This document shows, piece after piece, positions 21 through 13,280 of a stretch of 20,310 bases of DNA. The notes below the pieces were generated by a model, which worked only from the letters and a program-made list of their open reading frames with translations, was not told the DNA's origin and did no database searches. The DNA comes from Chlamydiota bacterium. GTDB taxonomy: Bacteria; Auribacterota; Tritonobacteria; UBA1439. A program made the translations under genes and the position numbers. Location: assembly GCA_037133055.1 (NCBI GenBank), contig JBAXOY010000051.1, positions 1 to 20,310 on the forward strand, in the 5' to 3' direction. How positions within the stretch are numbered: the first letter of the stretch is position 1; every line of letters starts with the position of its first letter.

Positions 21-1073
21 GTGAGTAAAGACGCCGGGAAAGTCATCCGTATCACCTGCACAGGCGCCGGGATGATGCCGCTCGACAAGATCGTCGCGCT
101 CCAGGGCGGGCTGAAAGAGCTTTCCGTCGAGAATTACGAGCGCCTGAAAAGCACGATCGTCAAGCGTGGGTTCTCCTTCCCTATCGGAATCGCGGTCATC
201 AAAGAGAAGCCCTGCGGCGTTATCGACGGTCATCAGCGGCACCGGGTCGTAAAGCAGATGGTCGAGAAGGAAGGCTACGCGCTCCCCTGTATGAAGCTCC
301 CCGTGTGCTGGATCGAGTGCAAGAACCGTGCGGAAGCGGGCAGGAAGATACTCGACGCCGTCTCACAGTTCGGGAAGGTGACAGACGAGGGGCTATATGA
401 GTTCGCAACTGATTTCAAGATCGACGCCGAGGAACTGAAGACGGACTTCGACCTGCCGGACTTTGATATGGGGGAGTACCTTGAGGGGTATGAGGAAGAG
501 CGGGCTGAAGCTAAAAAGCAGGCCGACCCAGAGGCGCAGAAGTACGCAGGGGGGCTGATATACCGGCCTACGGTGAACAAGAAGCGGACTTGCGCCTTTC
601 TCTCGATGCGGAAATGGCGGACTGCCACGAAAGAAGCCGACCTCGAACGCATCAAGGCGGCAAAGGCTGCCGGCGATGAGGATTTTGCGGACTTCGTTGC
701 CGGCGAGATGGCGGAGCTGATCAGTCTCCTCCTACGCCGTCCCGAAGATTGGACCGTGACCAGCCCTCCTCCTGGACATTCCCGCGGGAAAGGGAAGCAT
801 TTCGCCGCCCTGATCGCCCAGAAGGTCGCATCGAGGCTTGGATCTGAGTATGTCTTGGCATTCGAGCCGGGGACCCCCAAGAAGGGCAGAGAGCAGGAGC
901 ACTGGAAGGACAAGGAGGGGGTGCCGACCCTCAAGGATACCGGAGCGAGGAGATGGCTTCTGGTCGATGACGTCGCGACAACGGGCCTGACGATAGAGAA
1001 GTGCTGTGAATTACTAAGCACCCATGGGGCGGTTCTTTCGGTCGCCTGGGTATACGAAGAGACGGAACTATGA
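21..1073 (+). CDS. ParB/Srx-like N-terminal domain fused to a C-terminal type I phosphoribosyltransferase (ComF-like) domain
   Basis: GTG start with SD GAGGAG (7-12). ParB-like motifs GFSFPI and VIDGHQRHR. C-terminal PRPP-binding loop WLLVDDVATTGLT, preceded by a ComF-like TSPPPGHSR segment. Confidence 0.8.
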   Translation: MSKDAGKVIRITCTGAGMMPLDKIVALQGGLKELSVENYERLKSTIVKRGFSFPIGIAVIKEKPCGVIDGHQRHRVVKQMVEKEGYALPCMKLPVCWIECKNRAEAGRKILDAVSQFGKVTDEGLYEFATDFKIDAEELKTDFDLPDFDMGEYLEGYEEERAEAKKQADPEAQKYAGGLIYRPTVNKKRTCAFLSMRKWRTATKEADLERIKAAKAAGDEDFADFVAGEMAELISLLLRRPEDWTVTSPPPGHSRGKGKHFAALIAQKVASRLGSEYVLAFEPGTPKKGREQEHWKDKEGVPTLKDTGARRWLLVDDVATTGLTIEKCCELLSTHGAVLSVAWVYEETEL

Positions 1074-1636
1074 GCAGGGACATCGGGAGAGTCATCAGTA
1101 TCACCTGTGAGGGCAAGTCTCTTATGTCGCTCTCTGAGATCAAGGAGCTCCAGGGGCAGCTCAAAGAGCTGTCAGTCAGGGGATACGAGAAACTCAAGAG
1201 AACCATCGCCAAGGAGGGCTTTGCGTTCCCGATCGGAGTGGCAGTGATAGACGGGAAGCCATACGGGATACTTGATGGTCACCAGAGGTTACGGACCGTC
1301 CGGCAGATGACACAGAAGGAGGGATACAGCCTGCCCGGGGGAAAGCTTCCGGTGTCATTCACGCAGTGCAAAGATAAGGCACAAGCCGGGCGGCTTATTC
1401 TCAGTGCGATCTCGCAATATGCAAAGACAAAGGATGAGGGTCTGTACGAGTTCGCGAACGAGTTCAAGATAGACCCAAAGAGCCTTACGGATGACTTTGA
1501 TATCCCCGACTATGACACCGAGAAGTTCGTCGAGGGGTATTACGGCGATGTTTTGGCCGGCACCGATAAGGCAGGAGCAGGAGATGATGATCCAGAGACT
1601 AATAACGAATGCCCGAAATGCGGGTTCAGGTGGTAG
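1070..1636 (+). CDS. ParB-like domain protein with C-terminal CPKCG zinc knuckle; paralog of 21..1073
   Basis: ILDGHQRLR motif; gap-free alignment to the first ~157 aa of the upstream ORF; ends NECPKCGFRW; ATGA overlap with the upstream stop. Confidence 0.8.
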   Translation: MSRDIGRVISITCEGKSLMSLSEIKELQGQLKELSVRGYEKLKRTIAKEGFAFPIGVAVIDGKPYGILDGHQRLRTVRQMTQKEGYSLPGGKLPVSFTQCKDKAQAGRLILSAISQYAKTKDEGLYEFANEFKIDPKSLTDDFDIPDYDTEKFVEGYYGDVLAGTDKAGAGDDDPETNNECPKCGFRW

Positions 1637-1639
1637 GCC

Positions 1640-2992
1640 ATGGCTGAAGTAGCTTTTCTCGTGTACGGCGGTCCGGATAAGCAGGGGTTCCGGAAAAGCG
1701 CCAGCTTCGACTGGCTGGGCAATATCGGAGCCTACATGGTGATTGACTGTCTGCGTAGGGCGGGGATTGAGGTCGGTTTCTGTTCTCCCGCGACAGCACA
1801 TGAGCACAAGGTCATCCTCGCCTCATTTACCAGTTCCTTTGATACCTACAACTTCCTTCGGGCAGTGGCGAAGGTCCCCTCATGGCGTTCGAGGAAATTC
1901 AGGGTTATTGCCGGCGGATTCGGGCTCCAGAACGTATATCCGCTCCGGGAGCTCATAGATTATGCGGTATTCGGGAGATGCGAGTCTTTCATCGCAGGCA
2001 TGGTCAAGGCTGTTCTCGAGGGAAAGGATTATACCCATGAGAGTTTGATGGCCCTCGAGGATGGTGTGAAGAAGGTGGTGCTAGGGCAGGCCGGAGGCCT
2101 GTATCCCCATGAACTCGATACCCAGCCGATCAAATACCAGGAGATGGAAATCGGCTGTCCGCGCAGGTGTCTTTTTTGCCATTACTCATTCGCTCGGAAG
2201 AGGCTCACCAGCAACAAGGAGATGTTCCGGGGAGCGCTCGGGTGGACGGCGAAAGAGGTGCTGTTCGACAGGTTGCTCCAGGACAGCAACCTGAAGGGTA
2301 TGACGAGAACAGCTATCGACGGATTCAGCGAGCGGTTGAGACTTGCGTTCCACAAGCCTATCACTGACAAGATGATAAAGGAGACGATCGAGAAGCTGTC
2401 GATTATGTGGAATGGGAGTTCGGTCTGGCTCAAGTTGTATCAGATTGGATCGTTCCCAACCGAAACGGAAGATGACCGGCGACAGTTCACCAAATTGATC
2501 AACTCATGCGAGTGCAAAGGGAAACGGGTCCGGATCGACATCCATGTGACACCCTTCAGGCCATCCGCTCTCACGCCCGCAGCTTACCTTCCAGTGGATA
2601 TCGGCTTTAGCTGGAGGAGGATAGCCTCAACCAACATAGCCCATAAGCCCACGCTGGAAGTCTTCTATACGCCGACGATCGAGACCAGTTTCTCTCACTT
2701 AAAAGAGCTGATCGTAATCAGGGCCACCGAGGAGAGCGACGAGATCCTCGATGCGATCTGCTTTAATCGTGCCCTGGAGAAGATATCGGCGGAGGCACGC
2801 CCAAGGGTGATTTCAAAGCATTTCGACCTATCACCCTACCTTCGGGAATACCACACCGAGGAGCAGCTTCCGACCTGGTACCTGACCGGGCATGTGCCGG
2901 ATGAACAGGTGCGGGCTATGGCGCGAAAGCTAAAAGCCGATCTCGGGATGCCAGAGAAGAGAGTCAATGAGAAACAAAAGCACCAGGAATAA
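1640..2992 (+). CDS. Radical SAM protein with a probable B12-binding-like N-terminal domain
   Basis: CxxxCxxC motif GCPRRCLFCHY. N-terminal VIAGGFGLQN...IDYAVFGRCE resembles B12-binding radical SAM enzymes; also DGFSERLR, IGSFPTETEDD and TPFRPSALTP segments. Confidence 0.8.
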   Translation: MAEVAFLVYGGPDKQGFRKSASFDWLGNIGAYMVIDCLRRAGIEVGFCSPATAHEHKVILASFTSSFDTYNFLRAVAKVPSWRSRKFRVIAGGFGLQNVYPLRELIDYAVFGRCESFIAGMVKAVLEGKDYTHESLMALEDGVKKVVLGQAGGLYPHELDTQPIKYQEMEIGCPRRCLFCHYSFARKRLTSNKEMFRGALGWTAKEVLFDRLLQDSNLKGMTRTAIDGFSERLRLAFHKPITDKMIKETIEKLSIMWNGSSVWLKLYQIGSFPTETEDDRRQFTKLINSCECKGKRVRIDIHVTPFRPSALTPAAYLPVDIGFSWRRIASTNIAHKPTLEVFYTPTIETSFSHLKELIVIRATEESDEILDAICFNRALEKISAEARPRVISKHFDLSPYLREYHTEEQLPTWYLTGHVPDEQVRAMARKLKADLGMPEKRVNEKQKHQE

Positions 2993-3458
2993 TAAAAGGT
3001 CAAAGTACGACTGGCAGGCTATACGGCACGAGTATGTCACAAGCCCTGCAGGGGAAGAAGGGTTGACGTTAGATGTGTTGTCGAAAAAATACCGTTGCCC
3101 ATTCACCTATATCCAGCAAAAGGCGGCTAAGGAAAGTTGGACAAAGCTCCGCGAGGGTCATAGAAGAAAAATAGCAGAAAATGCGCAGAAAAAAGCCGAG
3201 GAAACTGCCGCCCAACGCCTACATCGCCATGCGCAGTACCTGAGGCTCGTACAGGCGAAGGCCGGGAAGGCGATGCTTACCGGAGAAACGGTCCCGACGC
3301 CGAGAGACGGAACCGAGGCAATTAAGGCCGAGCGCGTACTGTACGGCGAGGCCAGTGAGCATATACAGATTGAAGCAAGTAAACTCGACAGAATGATAGC
3401 CGCCGCGTACTGGAAGGCGCGCCGGGAACAGATGGAGTATGAGAGCGATGGAGATTGA
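2967..3458 (+). CDS. Terminase small subunit (putative)
   Basis: N-terminal YDWQAIRHEYVT / LSKKY / KESW HTH-like pattern followed by helical segments; overlaps the large terminase start. Confidence 0.7.
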   Translation: MRNKSTRNNKRSKYDWQAIRHEYVTSPAGEEGLTLDVLSKKYRCPFTYIQQKAAKESWTKLREGHRRKIAENAQKKAEETAAQRLHRHAQYLRLVQAKAGKAMLTGETVPTPRDGTEAIKAERVLYGEASEHIQIEASKLDRMIAAAYWKARREQMEYESDGD

Positions 3459-5091
3459 GGAGCTTCGCAAGAAGGACCGCTATTTCAGAGGGATCACTCC
3501 GGGCAGTCCCGTTGAGCTCCTCGACTACGTCGCGACATACTGCGGCGCGATCATCCCGCATTATCCGAAGGGAAAGGCACCCTGTGTCGGACATGATTCT
3601 CCGTCTTCGTACCTTGTCGGCAGCTTCTTCGACAATACGGACGGCTGGAGCAAATCGGAAAAAGCCCAGTACGAGCCGCACAAGGATTGTGTCGTGTGGG
3701 CCTGCCGGAGCGGCGGGAAGACGATGCTGGGCGCGATCTCGGCAAGGCTCAAGGCTCATTTTATGTCACCGTGCGAGATACGTGTACTCGGGGGGTCCAG
3801 CGATCAGGCCAAGAAAATGTACGACAACGTGAGCAGATTCGACCTCACGGCCTTCGCGGACATGGTAGTCGGCGAGGCGACGCAGGAGAAGACGAGATAC
3901 CGGGGTATGAGCAATATCGAGATTCTCATGGCGTCGATGAAGAGCGTTCGCGGGCCGCATGTGCCGGTCCTTATGCTCGACGAGGTGGACGAGTTCACGA
4001 AGCGCATCTATATCGCTGCCGTCGCCATCGCCCAGTCCTCGAAAAAGGTGACGGCGACAATCGAACAGTTCTCAACGGCGCACAATCCGAACGGAATCAT
4101 GCAACAGCTCATTACGGATGCGGCGACGAGCGGCATGAGGCTCTATAAGTGGTGCATATTCGAGTGCCTCATTAAATGCCCCTACCCATGCACGCCGGGC
4201 AATCCCCACAAGAAGTGTGCCGAGATGGTGAAGTACGACCAGATGAATCAGCCGCACCGGTTCTCGGATGTCTGCGGATGCAAAGCGAAGAAGGGCCGCG
4301 GGTACTACCGGATCGAGGACCTGTGGCAGAAGTTTGAGCACCCGATGATGAGCTGGGAGAGTTTCGCGTCGGAATACCTCTGTGACCTCCCGAAGCTGGA
4401 GGATGCCGCCTTCCCGATGCTGGCCAAGTTGCACCTTGTCCCCGACTGGCCTTGTGTTCCAGCCCCCGCAGGTTGGCTTAGGTCGCAATTTCGGCTGGTA
4501 CTAGGGGCTGATGCCGGGCCGGTCAACACATGGGTCGTGTGGGCGCTCGTGGGGCGGCTGGACCCGAAGCATGACGATTTCGACACGTTCCAGGTGATCC
4601 ACCAGCTTGTAACTGACAGGGCGACAGCCTCATCCGACCGGGCCGACATGATAGTCGCCGAGAATGAGCGGATGGGGTTCCCGAAGGCGACAGGGCTATT
4701 CACGGGACCATCGAGCGTGCCGCAGGACTCTGAGCTCGCAATGGAGCTCGACAAGGAACACAGGCGGTCTCGGCTGTTCCTGCCGTCGCCTCAGTCGCCT
4801 GCAGGCCGACGCTGTATGAGATGTGACAAGGAAGGGATGCAGTACGGCTGGGAGTCGATGGGCGGGCTTCTCGTGCTGCGGACGGTCATCGACGAACAGC
4901 CGCGCCCGGCGCTCGTGTTCGGAGCGGCCGCCCGTCCGACTTATGACGTGCTCGCAACGCAGCAGAAGGGGGAAGACGAAGCCCACGGAGTCGCAGCTAC
5001 GCGATACCTGATACGCGGATGGGAGACGTACAAGAACAGACTCACCGCAGCCTATGACGGGGGCGGTGGGATGGTGATTGCGACATCGTAA
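3439..5091 (+). CDS. terL: Terminase large subunit
   Basis: Walker A ACRSGGKT, SVRG, Walker B LMLDEVDE, coupling motif FSTA, RNase H-like start VLGADAG; lies between the TerS candidate and the portal. Alternative start ATG at 3448. Confidence 0.88.
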   Translation: MRAMEIEELRKKDRYFRGITPGSPVELLDYVATYCGAIIPHYPKGKAPCVGHDSPSSYLVGSFFDNTDGWSKSEKAQYEPHKDCVVWACRSGGKTMLGAISARLKAHFMSPCEIRVLGGSSDQAKKMYDNVSRFDLTAFADMVVGEATQEKTRYRGMSNIEILMASMKSVRGPHVPVLMLDEVDEFTKRIYIAAVAIAQSSKKVTATIEQFSTAHNPNGIMQQLITDAATSGMRLYKWCIFECLIKCPYPCTPGNPHKKCAEMVKYDQMNQPHRFSDVCGCKAKKGRGYYRIEDLWQKFEHPMMSWESFASEYLCDLPKLEDAAFPMLAKLHLVPDWPCVPAPAGWLRSQFRLVLGADAGPVNTWVVWALVGRLDPKHDDFDTFQVIHQLVTDRATASSDRADMIVAENERMGFPKATGLFTGPSSVPQDSELAMELDKEHRRSRLFLPSPQSPAGRRCMRCDKEGMQYGWESMGGLLVLRTVIDEQPRPALVFGAAARPTYDVLATQQKGEDEAHGVAATRYLIRGWETYKNRLTAAYDGGGGMVIATS

Positions 5092-5117: not shown

Positions 5118-6812
5118 ATGTCAAAAATTAAAAATACGTCACAACCGGTGCATACCGGGACAGTCATGAAAGCTGCTTCGCAGATGGTCGCGCTCGCGTC
5201 AGGCGGTCCGGTAATGGAGCAGGCTATTCCGAGTCGGTCAGCGTTCAAGGATCCGTTCGCGAAGAAGTCGATCGACGGGTTGCTGGTACATCCGGTCCCC
5301 CCGGTGGAGCTCTGCTTCTGGAAACAGCGGTCGAGTATCCTTCCGCAGATCATCCGCGCCCTCGAGGTGGGGATCGAGAGCTACGGGTACGACTTCATCA
5401 TCGCCGAGGAGATGAACGACGAGAAGGAGAAGGCCGCTATATGGGCGGCGATCAAAGGGGAGATCAACCCCCTGACCGGCCTCGCCTACGCCAAGACCAT
5501 CGAGGAGCTTCTCAACAGGGAGATCGAGCTCTGCGAACGGTTCTATGACTACTTCTCTCCGTTTGAGTCCTTCATCGACATCCGCCGGAAGTTCAGGAAC
5601 GATCGGGAGACCGTCGGCGCATGGGCGATGGAGGTCCTACGCGACGGGTTCGGCATCCCCTGCGGCGGCGAGCATGTCCCTGCGCATGAGGTCGGGCTCC
5701 TCGAGAAGGACGATACCGCTACGGAGATTGAGTTCGCGCGTATCGGTCGTGACTGGAAATGGGTGACGGATACGCGGCCGGTCTTTTTCCGCCGGTATGT
5801 CCAGATCAAGGGTGGATCAAAACGATATTACCGGCAGTTCGGGGATCCCCGCCCCCTGAGTTACATCAACGGGAAGACCCTCCTGAGTGCCGATGCGAAG
5901 AGTGCCGCCACGGAGATCATCTATGCCCCCGTGTATGTTCCCGGCACGGACTACGGCCTCCCGGACTGGTCCTCGCAGATCTACAACATCGGCGGCAGTC
6001 ACCTCATGGAGAAGGGGAACATGAGCTACTTCGCCAACTCCATGATCCCCGCGATCTTCATGGCGATCCTCGGCGGAGGAAAGGTCACGCAGGAGGAGCT
6101 CAAGAAGCTCGCGGGAGAGTTCGAGAAGGTGAAGGGCGACCCGAGCCAGACGAAACTCCTCGCGGTGCAGTTGCCGGCTGGCATGGCGGAGAACGATCCG
6201 ACGGGCAAGGCGAACAAACCTGACCTCGTGCTCAAGTTCCTGAAGGACCAGCAGCGGAATGACGCGACGCACACGGTCTACGGGAAGATCAATGACGAGA
6301 AGCTTCTGAGCTCGAGGGCTGTCCCGCCCATAGCCATAGGACGCAGTGGCGACTATACCCGCGCCACAGTATTCGGAGCCCTCAGCATGTTCGAGGACCG
6401 GACGTGCCGACCGGAGCGGAATCAATTCGACTGGACCATGAATCGAATCATCGTCGAGATGCGCGTGCGGTTCCATGAGTTCCAGTCAAGGGGACCGGAC
6501 CTGAGCGATCCTGACAGCATCGCCAGGCTGGTCGATGCCTGCTCGCGCGCCGGCGGGCTCTCGATCAACGGTTGCATCCAGATCGCCAACAAGGCCCTCG
6601 GGACAAAGGTGCCGCCGTATCCCGGGCCTGACGGTGACCTGCCGATCGCCGTGGTACTCGAGAAGATCAGGGCGCAGGCGGCGCTACAGGGGCCACGCGT
6701 GGCGCTCACGGCGGAGGATTCCGAGAAGCACATGAAGCAGTTCACGCAGATGTTCGGCAACTGGCTCATGCACTGCCGGGATCACGCGAGGAGGCTGAGC
6801 GATGCGGCGTAA
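5118..6812 (+). CDS. Portal protein (PBSX XkdE-like)
   Basis: 564 aa following TerL; motifs DRETVGAWAMEVLRD, YGLPDW, NMSYFANSMIP and VPPIAIG typical of phage portals. Confidence 0.85.
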   Translation: MSKIKNTSQPVHTGTVMKAASQMVALASGGPVMEQAIPSRSAFKDPFAKKSIDGLLVHPVPPVELCFWKQRSSILPQIIRALEVGIESYGYDFIIAEEMNDEKEKAAIWAAIKGEINPLTGLAYAKTIEELLNREIELCERFYDYFSPFESFIDIRRKFRNDRETVGAWAMEVLRDGFGIPCGGEHVPAHEVGLLEKDDTATEIEFARIGRDWKWVTDTRPVFFRRYVQIKGGSKRYYRQFGDPRPLSYINGKTLLSADAKSAATEIIYAPVYVPGTDYGLPDWSSQIYNIGGSHLMEKGNMSYFANSMIPAIFMAILGGGKVTQEELKKLAGEFEKVKGDPSQTKLLAVQLPAGMAENDPTGKANKPDLVLKFLKDQQRNDATHTVYGKINDEKLLSSRAVPPIAIGRSGDYTRATVFGALSMFEDRTCRPERNQFDWTMNRIIVEMRVRFHEFQSRGPDLSDPDSIARLVDACSRAGGLSINGCIQIANKALGTKVPPYPGPDGDLPIAVVLEKIRAQAALQGPRVALTAEDSEKHMKQFTQMFGNWLMHCRDHARRLSDAA

Positions 6813-9230: not shown

Positions 9231-9285
9231 AGGCACATCGTTTCAGGCGTGAATAACGCTTGATTCGATGTGCCTTTTTTATTTT
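9231..9285 (+). terminator. Intrinsic terminator T1
   Basis: AGGCACATCG (9231-9240) / CGATGTGCCT (9266-9275) perfect 10-bp stem, inner stem TCAGGCGT/ACGCTTGA, followed by TTTTTATTTT. Confidence 0.85.
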
Positions 9286-9302
9286 CTCCGGCACGCGAAG
9301 TC

Positions 9303-9347
9303 AAGGCCCGTTGTTTCAGGTTCACGCCTGAGCAATGGGCCTTTTTT
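9303..9347 (+). terminator. Intrinsic terminator T2
   Basis: AAGGCCCGTTGTTTCAGG (9303-9320) / CCTGAGCAATGGGCCTT (9327-9343) with G-U pairs and one bulge; T6 at 9342-9347. Confidence 0.8.
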
Positions 9348-9368
9348 CTGCGCGGAGCCGGAGGAGAC

Positions 9369-9773
9369 ATGAGGAAGCCAGGGCACTACAGGATCGCGGC
9401 GGTTCTATTCGCCTCTCTCGTTTTCGCAAGCCTCGCGTCTGCTCAGACCGAGACGCCTACCCCCACCGAAACACCGACCTCAACTCCGACTATCACGCCG
9501 ACCCTGACGCCTACTCCGTCTCCGACGGCCTATGCCTATCCATACGCGCCGTCCTACGACTGGAAGTACGGGGGCGCCGCGCAGACGCAGAAGGCGATCC
9601 GTCAAATCGCGCATGACCTCGCGGGGATCGCCGCGTCATCCGGCTACCAGCTCCCAGTGCTCTATGTCCAGTCCACCCCAACCCCGACTCCTACCCGGAC
9701 CCGGACCCCGACGAAGACTCCGACGGTCACCCGCACCCCCACGAGGACACCGACCCCCACGGTGACTCCATGA
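9369..9773 (+). CDS. Signal-peptide Pro/Thr-repeat protein 1 (134 aa)
   Basis: SD GGAGGAG then ATG at 9369 (preferred over 9270). MRKPGHYRIAAVLFASLVFASLASA|QTETPT has basic, hydrophobic and A-S-A cleavage regions; two PT tracts flank a short core; ATGA overlap with the protease. Confidence 0.8.
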   Translation: MRKPGHYRIAAVLFASLVFASLASAQTETPTPTETPTSTPTITPTLTPTPSPTAYAYPYAPSYDWKYGGAAQTQKAIRQIAHDLAGIAASSGYQLPVLYVQSTPTPTPTRTRTPTKTPTVTRTPTRTPTPTVTP

Positions 9774-12243: not shown

Positions 12244-12690
12244 GTGCCGATCTATAGAGACAGGCGATGCTCGGGGTCATATTCCCAGACGGTCAACGGC
12301 ATCGCTTACTGCCTGAGATCACACAAACCTGCTCCTCCTGGTACGCCGCCCGGAGTAATCGAGAAGGCCAGGAGATGCGGGGTGATCGTTCTCGATCCGG
12401 GGCAGAAACCCGAGCCGATGAGGAAGGTGGCTCCCGAGGAGCTCAAGGACAATAAGTCGCACATGGTCATAGCGAGTACCAGGCCGAAGAGGCTGCGCGA
12501 TGAGTTCCCGGCGAGGTCGAGAGTGAAGAAACAAGAGGAAGAGGCGCAGCCGCCAGCATCCGCTCCGGCGGTACCGGCGGATGTGGATGTTTCTAATCCG
12601 GGATGGAATAGGCCGAAGACCGAAGAAAAGCCACAGGCTACAGAGAAGAAGATCGCAAAACGAGCACGCAAGAAAGAAGGAGAAAAATGA
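12244..12690 (+). CDS. Hypothetical protein with Pro/Lys-rich, probably disordered C-terminus
   Basis: SD GGAGG (12231-12235) with GTG start; ATGA overlap with the next gene; post-capsid position. Confidence 0.7.
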   Translation: MPIYRDRRCSGSYSQTVNGIAYCLRSHKPAPPGTPPGVIEKARRCGVIVLDPGQKPEPMRKVAPEELKDNKSHMVIASTRPKRLRDEFPARSRVKKQEEEAQPPASAPAVPADVDVSNPGWNRPKTEEKPQATEKKIAKRARKKEGEK

Positions 12691-13280
12691 GAGAGAGAAG
12701 ATTCAAATGGAGGGTGCTCGGCGCGATGGTACTCTTCGCCATTGTGGTGACGTCTGTGCTCGCCCAGACGGAGACGCCAACTGAGACCCCGACGATCACA
12801 GCGACCCCCACGAATACTCCGACCAATACCCCCACAAACACGCCGACGGGGACCCCGACCAGTACGGCTACATACACTCCGACGATCACGCCAACAGCAA
12901 CGGCCACGGCGACTACTCCCCCGACGGCGACATCGACGCCGACTAAGACGCCGACGATTACCCCGACGCCCACTGTGACACCGGTGCAGTTCCGGGTCCC
13001 GCTTGAGCCTTTTCGCGGGATGCGAGGCGGGGCAGACATCTTCAACGGATTCAAACAGACGGCGTATGACCTGAACGCGATCAAGACATGGCTTGAGGCG
13101 AATGTGGCGACGCCCGGGCCGGCAATTGGGCTATCGGTACAGCCGACGGTGACCCCCACACCGACGCCGACGAAGACGCCTACGCGGACGGCGACTCCGA
13201 CCCGGACACCGACACGGACTCCGACGCCCACGAGGACAGCGACGCCGACAAGGACCCCCACGGCCACGGTTACGCCGTAG
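12687..13280 (+). CDS. Signal-peptide Pro/Thr-repeat protein 2 (197 aa); paralog of 9369..9773
   Basis: MRERRFKWRVLGAMVLFAIVVTSVLA|QTETPT; two PT tracts; core GGA...KQTAYDLNAI; ends TVTP; SD AAGGAG. Confidence 0.85.
   Translation: MRERRFKWRVLGAMVLFAIVVTSVLAQTETPTETPTITATPTNTPTNTPTNTPTGTPTSTATYTPTITPTATATATTPPTATSTPTKTPTITPTPTVTPVQFRVPLEPFRGMRGGADIFNGFKQTAYDLNAIKTWLEANVATPGPAIGLSVQPTVTPTPTPTKTPTRTATPTRTPTRTPTPTRTATPTRTPTATVTP

Follow-up and report, generated by a model that had tools for sequence, protein, structure and literature searches.

A conserved pair of ParB-like adaptor and B12-type radical SAM enzyme in phage packaging loci: a candidate DNA-modification system

Introduction

In the ParB-Tls loci of a 2013 survey, a ParB-like gene and a gene for a modifying enzyme accompany a terminase gene (available portions of PMC6536676 and PMC4738411). 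In a second system, the phage thymine dioxygenase 5mYOX176 is activated by ParB176, and both ends of ParB176 are required for this; the ParB is a separate protein that has no DNA-binding domain and carries a linker and a C-terminal element, and the word zinc is absent from the main text of the paper (available portion of PMC13229309). A radical SAM enzyme that acts on DNA, M6 gp53, is also on record (available portion of PMC8989533), and the ComF-like phosphoribosyltransferases (PRTases) of invasive elements have been called an enigmatic group (available portion of PMC5512222).

Here we analyse a phage packaging locus in a stretch of 20,310 nt (hereafter the window), which is an entire contig within a 2.99-Mb bin. 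The locus has the same gene order as the ParB-Tls loci, and its CPKCGF adaptor type serves C5 and Dam methylases too, but where those loci encode a Rossmann-fold methyltransferase the window encodes a B12-type radical SAM protein. The ParB-dependent and ParB-independent subclasses of 5mYOX parallel the ParB-less radical-SAM loci reported below; however, 5mYOX is an oxygen-dependent Fe/2OG enzyme, whereas the partner in the window is an Fe-S/B12 radical SAM enzyme (available portion of PMC13229309). Like MgmA/QCMT, the third protein of the locus (ORF3) combines a B12 domain with a radical SAM core, and the motifs of the two align; unlike ORF3, MgmA/QCMT is archaeal, acts on a peptide and has no ParB partner, and identity is 13-15% (PDB 9ccb; available portion of PMC11796369). 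TIGR03960 is an uncharacterised cellular family with some DUF2344 fusions, whereas the ORF3 family is shorter, viral and ParB-paired. Finally, ShosT and PsyrT resemble ORF1 in having a type I PRTase whose PRPP loop is intact (available portions of PMC5512222 and PMC12961424), but ORF1 is fused to a ParB at a packaging locus, with no DprA in the window and one beside the relative in locus L292.

Results

Three tightly packed genes precede the terminase

Pfam and PHROGs scans assigned the window phage packaging, head and contractile-tail genes. Its first three genes (Table 1) had been described in an earlier note, made from the DNA alone, as tightly packed with the last overlapping terS. The ORF coordinates bear this out, with all genes on the same strand: the overlap of ORF1 and ORF2 is the tetranucleotide ATGA, ORF2 stops 3 nt short of ORF3, which in turn shares 26 nt with terS. 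Profile, motif and structure searches agree with the same note on the domains (ParB-PRTase, ParB-CxxC and radical SAM). The genes after terL encode the portal, head, sheath, tube and tape-measure proteins of a phage with a contractile tail.

Table 1. Features of the packaging locus, in window coordinates
Feature	Position	Strand	Remarks
ORF1: ParB-like + ComF-like type I PRTase fusion	21-1073	+	350 aa
ORF2: ParB-like adaptor (ParB N-domain, acidic linker, C-terminal CPKCGF tail)	1070-1636	+	188 aa
CPKCGFRW tail of ORF2	1610-1633	+	common to ParB adaptors of phage C5-cytosine/adenine methylases
ORF3: B12-binding-domain radical SAM enzyme	1640-2992	+	450 aa; CxxxCxxC residues 173-180
terS, terminase small subunit	2967-3458	+	PHROGs match
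terL, terminase large subunit	3439-5091	+	PHROGs match

The GC3 of ORF2 (0.67) and ORF3 (0.68) is lower than that of the seven genes from terL to the tape measure (0.71-0.84), which is compatible with a swapped-in slot; the value for terS is lower still (0.59). A TET/JBP match was found for none of the 22 window ORFs. In locus L084, from a related phage, no further modification gene was seen among the ORFs called upstream of the ParB-PRTase, a set that lay outside the Pfam scan.

ORF3 is a divergent B12-type radical SAM enzyme

The cluster motif of ORF3, CPRRCLFC at residues 173-180, contains three cysteines (C173, C177 and C180) that are invariant in 65 sequences. Scores against established families were low: 33.4 bits for TIGR04013 (E 2e-8; cut-off 251), 20.4 bits for TIGR03960 (cut-off 462.3), and a value under the cut-off for the Pfam B12-binding domain. 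The 65 members of the ORF3 family matched 11 families, with scores far under the cut-offs. Because all family cut-offs lie so far above these scores, we assign ORF3 by sequence to an unnamed, mostly viral subfamily of class B radical SAM enzymes.

An AlphaFold model of ORF3 (pLDDT 93.7) supports the B12-type architecture. Residues 1-130 matched cobalamin-binding domains with Z 6.5-7.6 in a fold comparison, and the best solved match to the model was MgmA, a peptide methylase (Z 18.4, rmsd 3.5, 319 residues aligned). CysS, AprD4, MiaB, TsrM and OxsB followed with Z 13-15, AprD4 (Z 14.1) and OxsB (Z 13.0) having the two-domain fold in common with ORF3. The cobalamin-domain motifs also align with those of MgmA by sequence (E 8e-9). 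The alignment to MgmA ends at residue 369 of ORF3, and the match to TIGR03960 reaches the C-terminus.

Sixty-four of 65 matches were homologues of ORF3 at E <=1e-29, and the matches of a profile search (E up to 1e-30) fall into 274 clusters when grouped at 50% identity. All of the best 150 profile matches are at most 519 aa long, hence none of these carries a fusion such as DUF2344. We take DUF2344 to be a catalytically dead pseudouridine-synthase-like domain; pseudouridine synthases gave weak matches only (E 0.14-1.8). The nearest Atlas clusters are 73-100% viral. The family was found in none of 50,697 annotated phage records, nor was a cultured phage with the gene, and 60 related genomes yielded no full-length orthologue, just partial matches at E 1e-14 or weaker.

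Among cellular families TIGR03960 stands closest, with a TM of 0.80 between predicted models over residues 1-435 and an hhalign value of 98% that includes the C-terminus. Seven of eight cellular matches scanned scored above the TIGR03960 cut-off, and three of the eight are fused to DUF2344. We also considered YgiQ (TIGR03904) as a close relative and rejected it, as it is missing from the 11 families to which the 65 members gave matches and reached an hhalign value of 7%. Escherichia coli YgiQ is presumably RlmX, an rRNA ribose C-methylase. A basic pI was likewise discarded as evidence of DNA binding, 27 B12-radical SAM proteins of the host being equally basic. The presumed host bin contains 31 matches to B12-binding domains, which makes a supply of cobalamin plausible; CobS was not found in this bin, which is 92% complete.

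ParB and radical SAM genes form a conserved pair

We compared the window with 161 other loci. Counting the window, the enzyme was present in 148 loci; 90 of these are non-redundant at 90%, and 84 of the 90 have enough flanking sequence to be informative. In 72 of the 84 the enzyme has a ParB-like gene on its own strand no more than 1 kb away (70 upstream, 2 downstream), as detected with a profile built from the same loci. In 51 of 61 loci terL is found no further than 3.5 kb downstream. These terminases fall into nine sequence clusters, two of them assigned by eye on the ATPase motif, so the enzyme is not tied to any one virion protein.

The enzymes of the 12 ParB-less loci are divergent, and several of these relatives adjoin other genes linked to modification, namely an N6/N4 methylase, Nmad5 or a PAPS reductase. 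The 87 neighbouring ORFs scanned contained no nucleotide kinase or phosphatase, the neighbourhood survey found no downstream tailoring enzyme conserved with the pair, and single-sequence locus searches gave no matches. The conserved unit is two genes, ParB-CPKCGF and the B12-type radical SAM enzyme, not three.

A common ParB tail precedes DNA methylases and the radical SAM enzyme

ORF2 matched phrog_620 (E 2e-6), and its family profile matched Noc/Spo0J (E 1e-13). ParB proteins encoded next to the radical SAM enzyme nearly always have an acidic linker and a CPKCG end, which in ORF2 reads CPKCGFRW; the non-adjacent ParB paralogues of L085, L084 and the window lack the CPKCG tail. In a motif-restricted search, the lysine of CPKCGF was present in 71 of 73 tails linked to the radical SAM enzyme. 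At tail position -2, histidine occurs in 31 of 35 methylase-linked and 2 of 73 radical-SAM-linked tails, counts that ignore kinship. Asp or Asn at position +8 had been a candidate for partner specificity and was dropped because the +8 codons overlap the ATG of the following gene.

We then searched in reverse with a DNA pattern for the terminal CPKCGFxFxx-stop, which returned at least 120 viral matches, and analysed 80 of them. A ParB-like ORF ends in the tail in 76 of the 80. The next gene encodes a C5-cytosine methylase in 52 (31 non-redundant) and the radical SAM enzyme in 20 (12 non-redundant); the others are Dam-type methylases (2), another methyltransferase (1), a second ParB (2), one unassigned gene and two missing genes. 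All 12 C5-methylase neighbours scanned matched PF00145. When lysine was excluded from the tail pattern, 42 of 44 matches lay in a ParB; the next gene was a C5 methylase in 38 of the 44 and the radical SAM enzyme in none.

The two enzyme classes alternate across a quick tree of 91 ParB cores, built on 133 columns after removal of the tails. The tree implies 15-17 changes of partner, at least 6-8 of them forced by well-supported branches, as against 25-28 changes with shuffled labels on the same tree. One pair of loci has the exchange in nearly matching surroundings: after the ParB gene, L165 has a C5 methylase and L044 the radical SAM enzyme, and in both a small gene and then gpA come next. Identity between their flanks is 75% across 244 nt and 67% across 961 nt, and their proteins are 59% (ParB) and 51% (TerL) identical. 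Judged from these gene arrangements, the CPKCGF tail serves DNA methylases in general as an adaptor, with the radical SAM enzyme as one interchangeable client.

The same tree groups the ParB domain of ORF2 with that of ORF1 and places that of L084 in another clade, so the ParB domain was exchanged while the tail was retained. The N-terminal 157 aa of ORF1 are 60% identical to ORF2, and we regard the two ParB domains, by sequence, as paralogues.

The ParB-PRTase is probably an independent cargo

The PRTase domain of ORF1 occupies about residues 170-350. This C-terminal part matched PF00156 with 23.8 bits (E 3e-5), under the cut-off of 26.3. Its PRPP-binding loop, LLVDDVATTG, is intact, and DDVAT-G is kept in six of six aligned sequences. 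The predicted model of ORF1 itself has a low pLDDT of 55, with PRTases as top fold matches; an Atlas model reached TM 0.73-0.78 to PRTase and ComF clusters. Atlas neighbours of the domain are ComF-like and viral PRTases, and there were weak matches to PsyrT and ShosT.

Full-length relatives of the fusion form just four clusters, and a search for the PRTase family in 79 genomes of the phylum returned the window, one generic loop match and nothing else. Among the 148 radical-SAM loci the PRTase is present in two, the window and L084. Many of these loci are short, and of the 29 non-redundant ones with at least 2.4 kb upstream, one has the PRTase. The order in L084 is ParB-PRTase, a terS-like gene, ParB-CPKCG, the radical SAM enzyme and terL. 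The same PRTase family also occurs apart from the enzyme. In L292, a 4.6-kb contig without a radical SAM gene, it is fused to a different ParB and adjoins DprA and a methylase; in MW202482 it is attached to another N-terminal domain, 1.6 kb ahead of terL, again without the enzyme. No DprA-like partner was found among the 22 window ORFs, the contig starting just upstream of ORF1. A literature search, with most subscription papers outside its scope, returned no description of a ParB-PRTase fusion.

The ParB-PRTase is probably a separate cargo that shares the ParB targeting domain, that is, an independent accessory gene of the packaging locus. We suggest that its PRTase may serve either DNA modification, as the ParB fusions hint, or ShosT-like nucleotide handling.

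Discussion

ParB-CPKCGF and the B12-type radical SAM enzyme are a conserved pair, placed ahead of the terminase in a slot otherwise held by DNA methylases. We propose that the pair likely modifies phage DNA once it has been replicated, with radical C-methylation as the most likely reaction; we put the probability of this reading at roughly 60%. In class B radical SAM enzymes, a first SAM methylates cobalamin and a second yields the hydrogen-abstracting radical, after which the substrate radical is methylated. Here the ParB would bind the enzyme via its tail and either bring it to double-stranded DNA or activate it there, a role modelled on the ParB that works with phage thymine dioxygenases. 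The [4Fe-4S] cluster would cleave SAM to give a 5'-deoxyadenosyl radical that strips an unactivated carbon of a hydrogen, and the resulting substrate radical would receive a methyl group from methylcobalamin. The target would be an sp3 carbon, our first guess being a deoxyribose carbon and our second the thymine methyl group, and the mark would shield progeny DNA from host nucleases. The deoxyribose guess is weak because the sugar-methylating YgiQ/RlmX is not a close relative. A k-mer comparison of 61 with 23 loci gave no usable target motif, and CTAG is low in the host too.

The DNA substrate is favoured because the enzyme exchanges with DNA methylases behind a common tail, and the same exchange bears on the two alternatives in which the substrate is something else. 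The enzyme might be an MgmA-like protein C-methylase that acts on the ParB tail or on a packaging or virion protein. MgmA is its best solved match by both fold and sequence, and the tail beside the enzyme is nearly invariant, including the lysine in 71 of 73 tails of the motif-restricted search. However, among the 80 analysed of at least 120 matches CPKCGF more often precedes a DNA methylase than the radical SAM enzyme, and as a substrate the tail loses its main ground because it serves ordinary DNA methylases as well; moreover, the downstream terminases are of unrelated types, family scores are far under the cut-off, and the MgmA match halts at residue 369 where that of TIGR03960 runs to the end. 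We therefore consider a protein substrate unlikely. Slightly less likely as substrates are RNA, of either host or phage, and free nucleotides, as for the cellular relatives, with the gene's position serving only late expression. The DUF2344 fusions in three of eight scanned proteins of the nearest cellular family would fit this, as would the presence among the fold matches of OxsB, which we take to act on dAMP; but in the phage family the best 150 matches are too short for DUF2344 and a ParB is the partner instead, the 87 neighbouring ORFs scanned include no nucleotide kinase or phosphatase, and L165 and L044 differ by an exchange with a DNA methylase.

Two further alternatives keep DNA as the substrate and change the chemistry. 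A non-methylating radical reaction, such as a rearrangement or the activation of a base for another enzyme, has models in AprD4, a dehydratase, and OxsB, which have the same two-domain fold, and in M6 gp53, an isomerase on DNA (available portion of PMC8989533). Yet no tailoring enzyme is conserved downstream of the pair, and ORF3 retains the B12-domain motifs, so that we rate such chemistry as improbable. The least probable of all is a single pathway in which the PRTase ribosylates DNA and the radical SAM enzyme then tailors the product, which the earlier note had offered as its example. Translational coupling in the window and the presence of both genes in L084 speak for it. Against it, terS separates the PRTase from the pair in L084, and the co-occurrence on which the note had staked its proposal fails for these two genes: since the PRTase is present in just 2 of 148 radical-SAM loci and exists on other N-terminal domains without the enzyme in L292 and MW202482, ribosylation plus radical chemistry is unsupported. 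The broader suggestion of a packaging-linked DNA-modification cassette holds for the ParB and radical SAM genes, on neighbourhood and slot exchange, but does not extend to the PRTase.

Radical C-methylation of DNA by the pair also has a bolder version, which we regard as speculative and rather doubtful. A cobalamin-dependent radical enzyme, held on DNA by an exchangeable ParB adaptor with a zinc knuckle, would C-methylate the deoxyribose backbone, or convert thymine to 5-ethyluracil, and the ParB-PRTase would act independently as another writer directed to DNA, one that adds phosphoribose. If true, this would be a DNA mark made by a carbon-carbon bond, a chemical class not met in our literature search, which left most subscription papers outside its scope.

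The same search, within that scope, found no description of a ParB and B12-type radical SAM pair, which is thus apparently a widespread, undescribed variant of the ParB-terminase modification locus. Going by the company that its genes keep, this variant likely brings a new chemistry to DNA modification. If so, B12-dependent radical methylation would join that repertoire, through a family that numbers at least 274 clusters at the 50% identity level and has no cultured representative. Radical SAM/B12 chemistry suits anoxic hosts, where oxygen-dependent ParB partners fail, and an enzyme that alkylates unactivated carbons in double-stranded DNA may prove a useful reagent. The common tail, which can be swapped, gives a handle on the standing question of how, at the packaging locus, phage ParB-like proteins couple varied modifying enzymes to DNA.

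Neighborhoods of the phage genes

Several modification genes are stacked in one locus, L085, ahead of terS and terL; its 291-aa protein carries a motif that, judged by eye, is PAPS-reductase-like. In L033, the radical SAM gene is directly preceded by an orphan copy of the CPKCG tail, with the intact ParB split off by an insertion. On three viral contigs (L147, L040, and L055), genes for a Cas9-like protein and an SNF2 helicase lie immediately upstream of a ParB-less radical SAM gene, those of L040 and L055 falling in the same clusters as their L147 counterparts.

In L292, a DprA gene (ShosA-like, E 5e-65) sits directly upstream of a ParB-PRTase fusion, an arrangement that resembles a ShosTA-type pair with an extra ParB domain. 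The PRTase fusion of L339 belongs to the same PRTase family as ParB-PRTase and is encoded near terminase genes. Within the head and neck genes of the window are two ORFs of similar layout, and a Pfam search with them returned no match.

Features at the compared loci and in the window
Locus	Position	Feature	Detail
L033	4789-4902	Orphan CPKCG tail	Second copy
L085	253-5257	Stacked genes	In order: ParB, Mom (PF25680), ParB-CPKCG, radical SAM, 291-aa protein, terS, terL
L147	597-3365	Cas9-like protein	923 aa; match to Cas9 structures, E 5e-16
L147	3751-5490	SNF2 helicase	
L292	1589-3797	DprA + ParB-PRTase fusion	
L339 (MW202482)	5491-6492	PRTase fusion	N-terminal domain with HGGSS motif
Window	9270-9773	ORF	Hydrophobic N-terminus, long Thr-Pro repeats
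Window	12687-13280	ORF	Hydrophobic N-terminus, long Thr-Pro repeats

Cellular relatives

The host bin has clusters of many B12-binding radical SAM genes on contigs C9 and C12 (7 and 4 matches, respectively). Among cellular TIGR03960 proteins (L283-L291), three of the eight scanned are fused to DUF2344, a domain whose profile weakly matched three pseudouridine synthases (E 0.14-1.8). Cellular TIGR03960 and DUF2344 may constitute an uncharacterised RNA-modifying pair.
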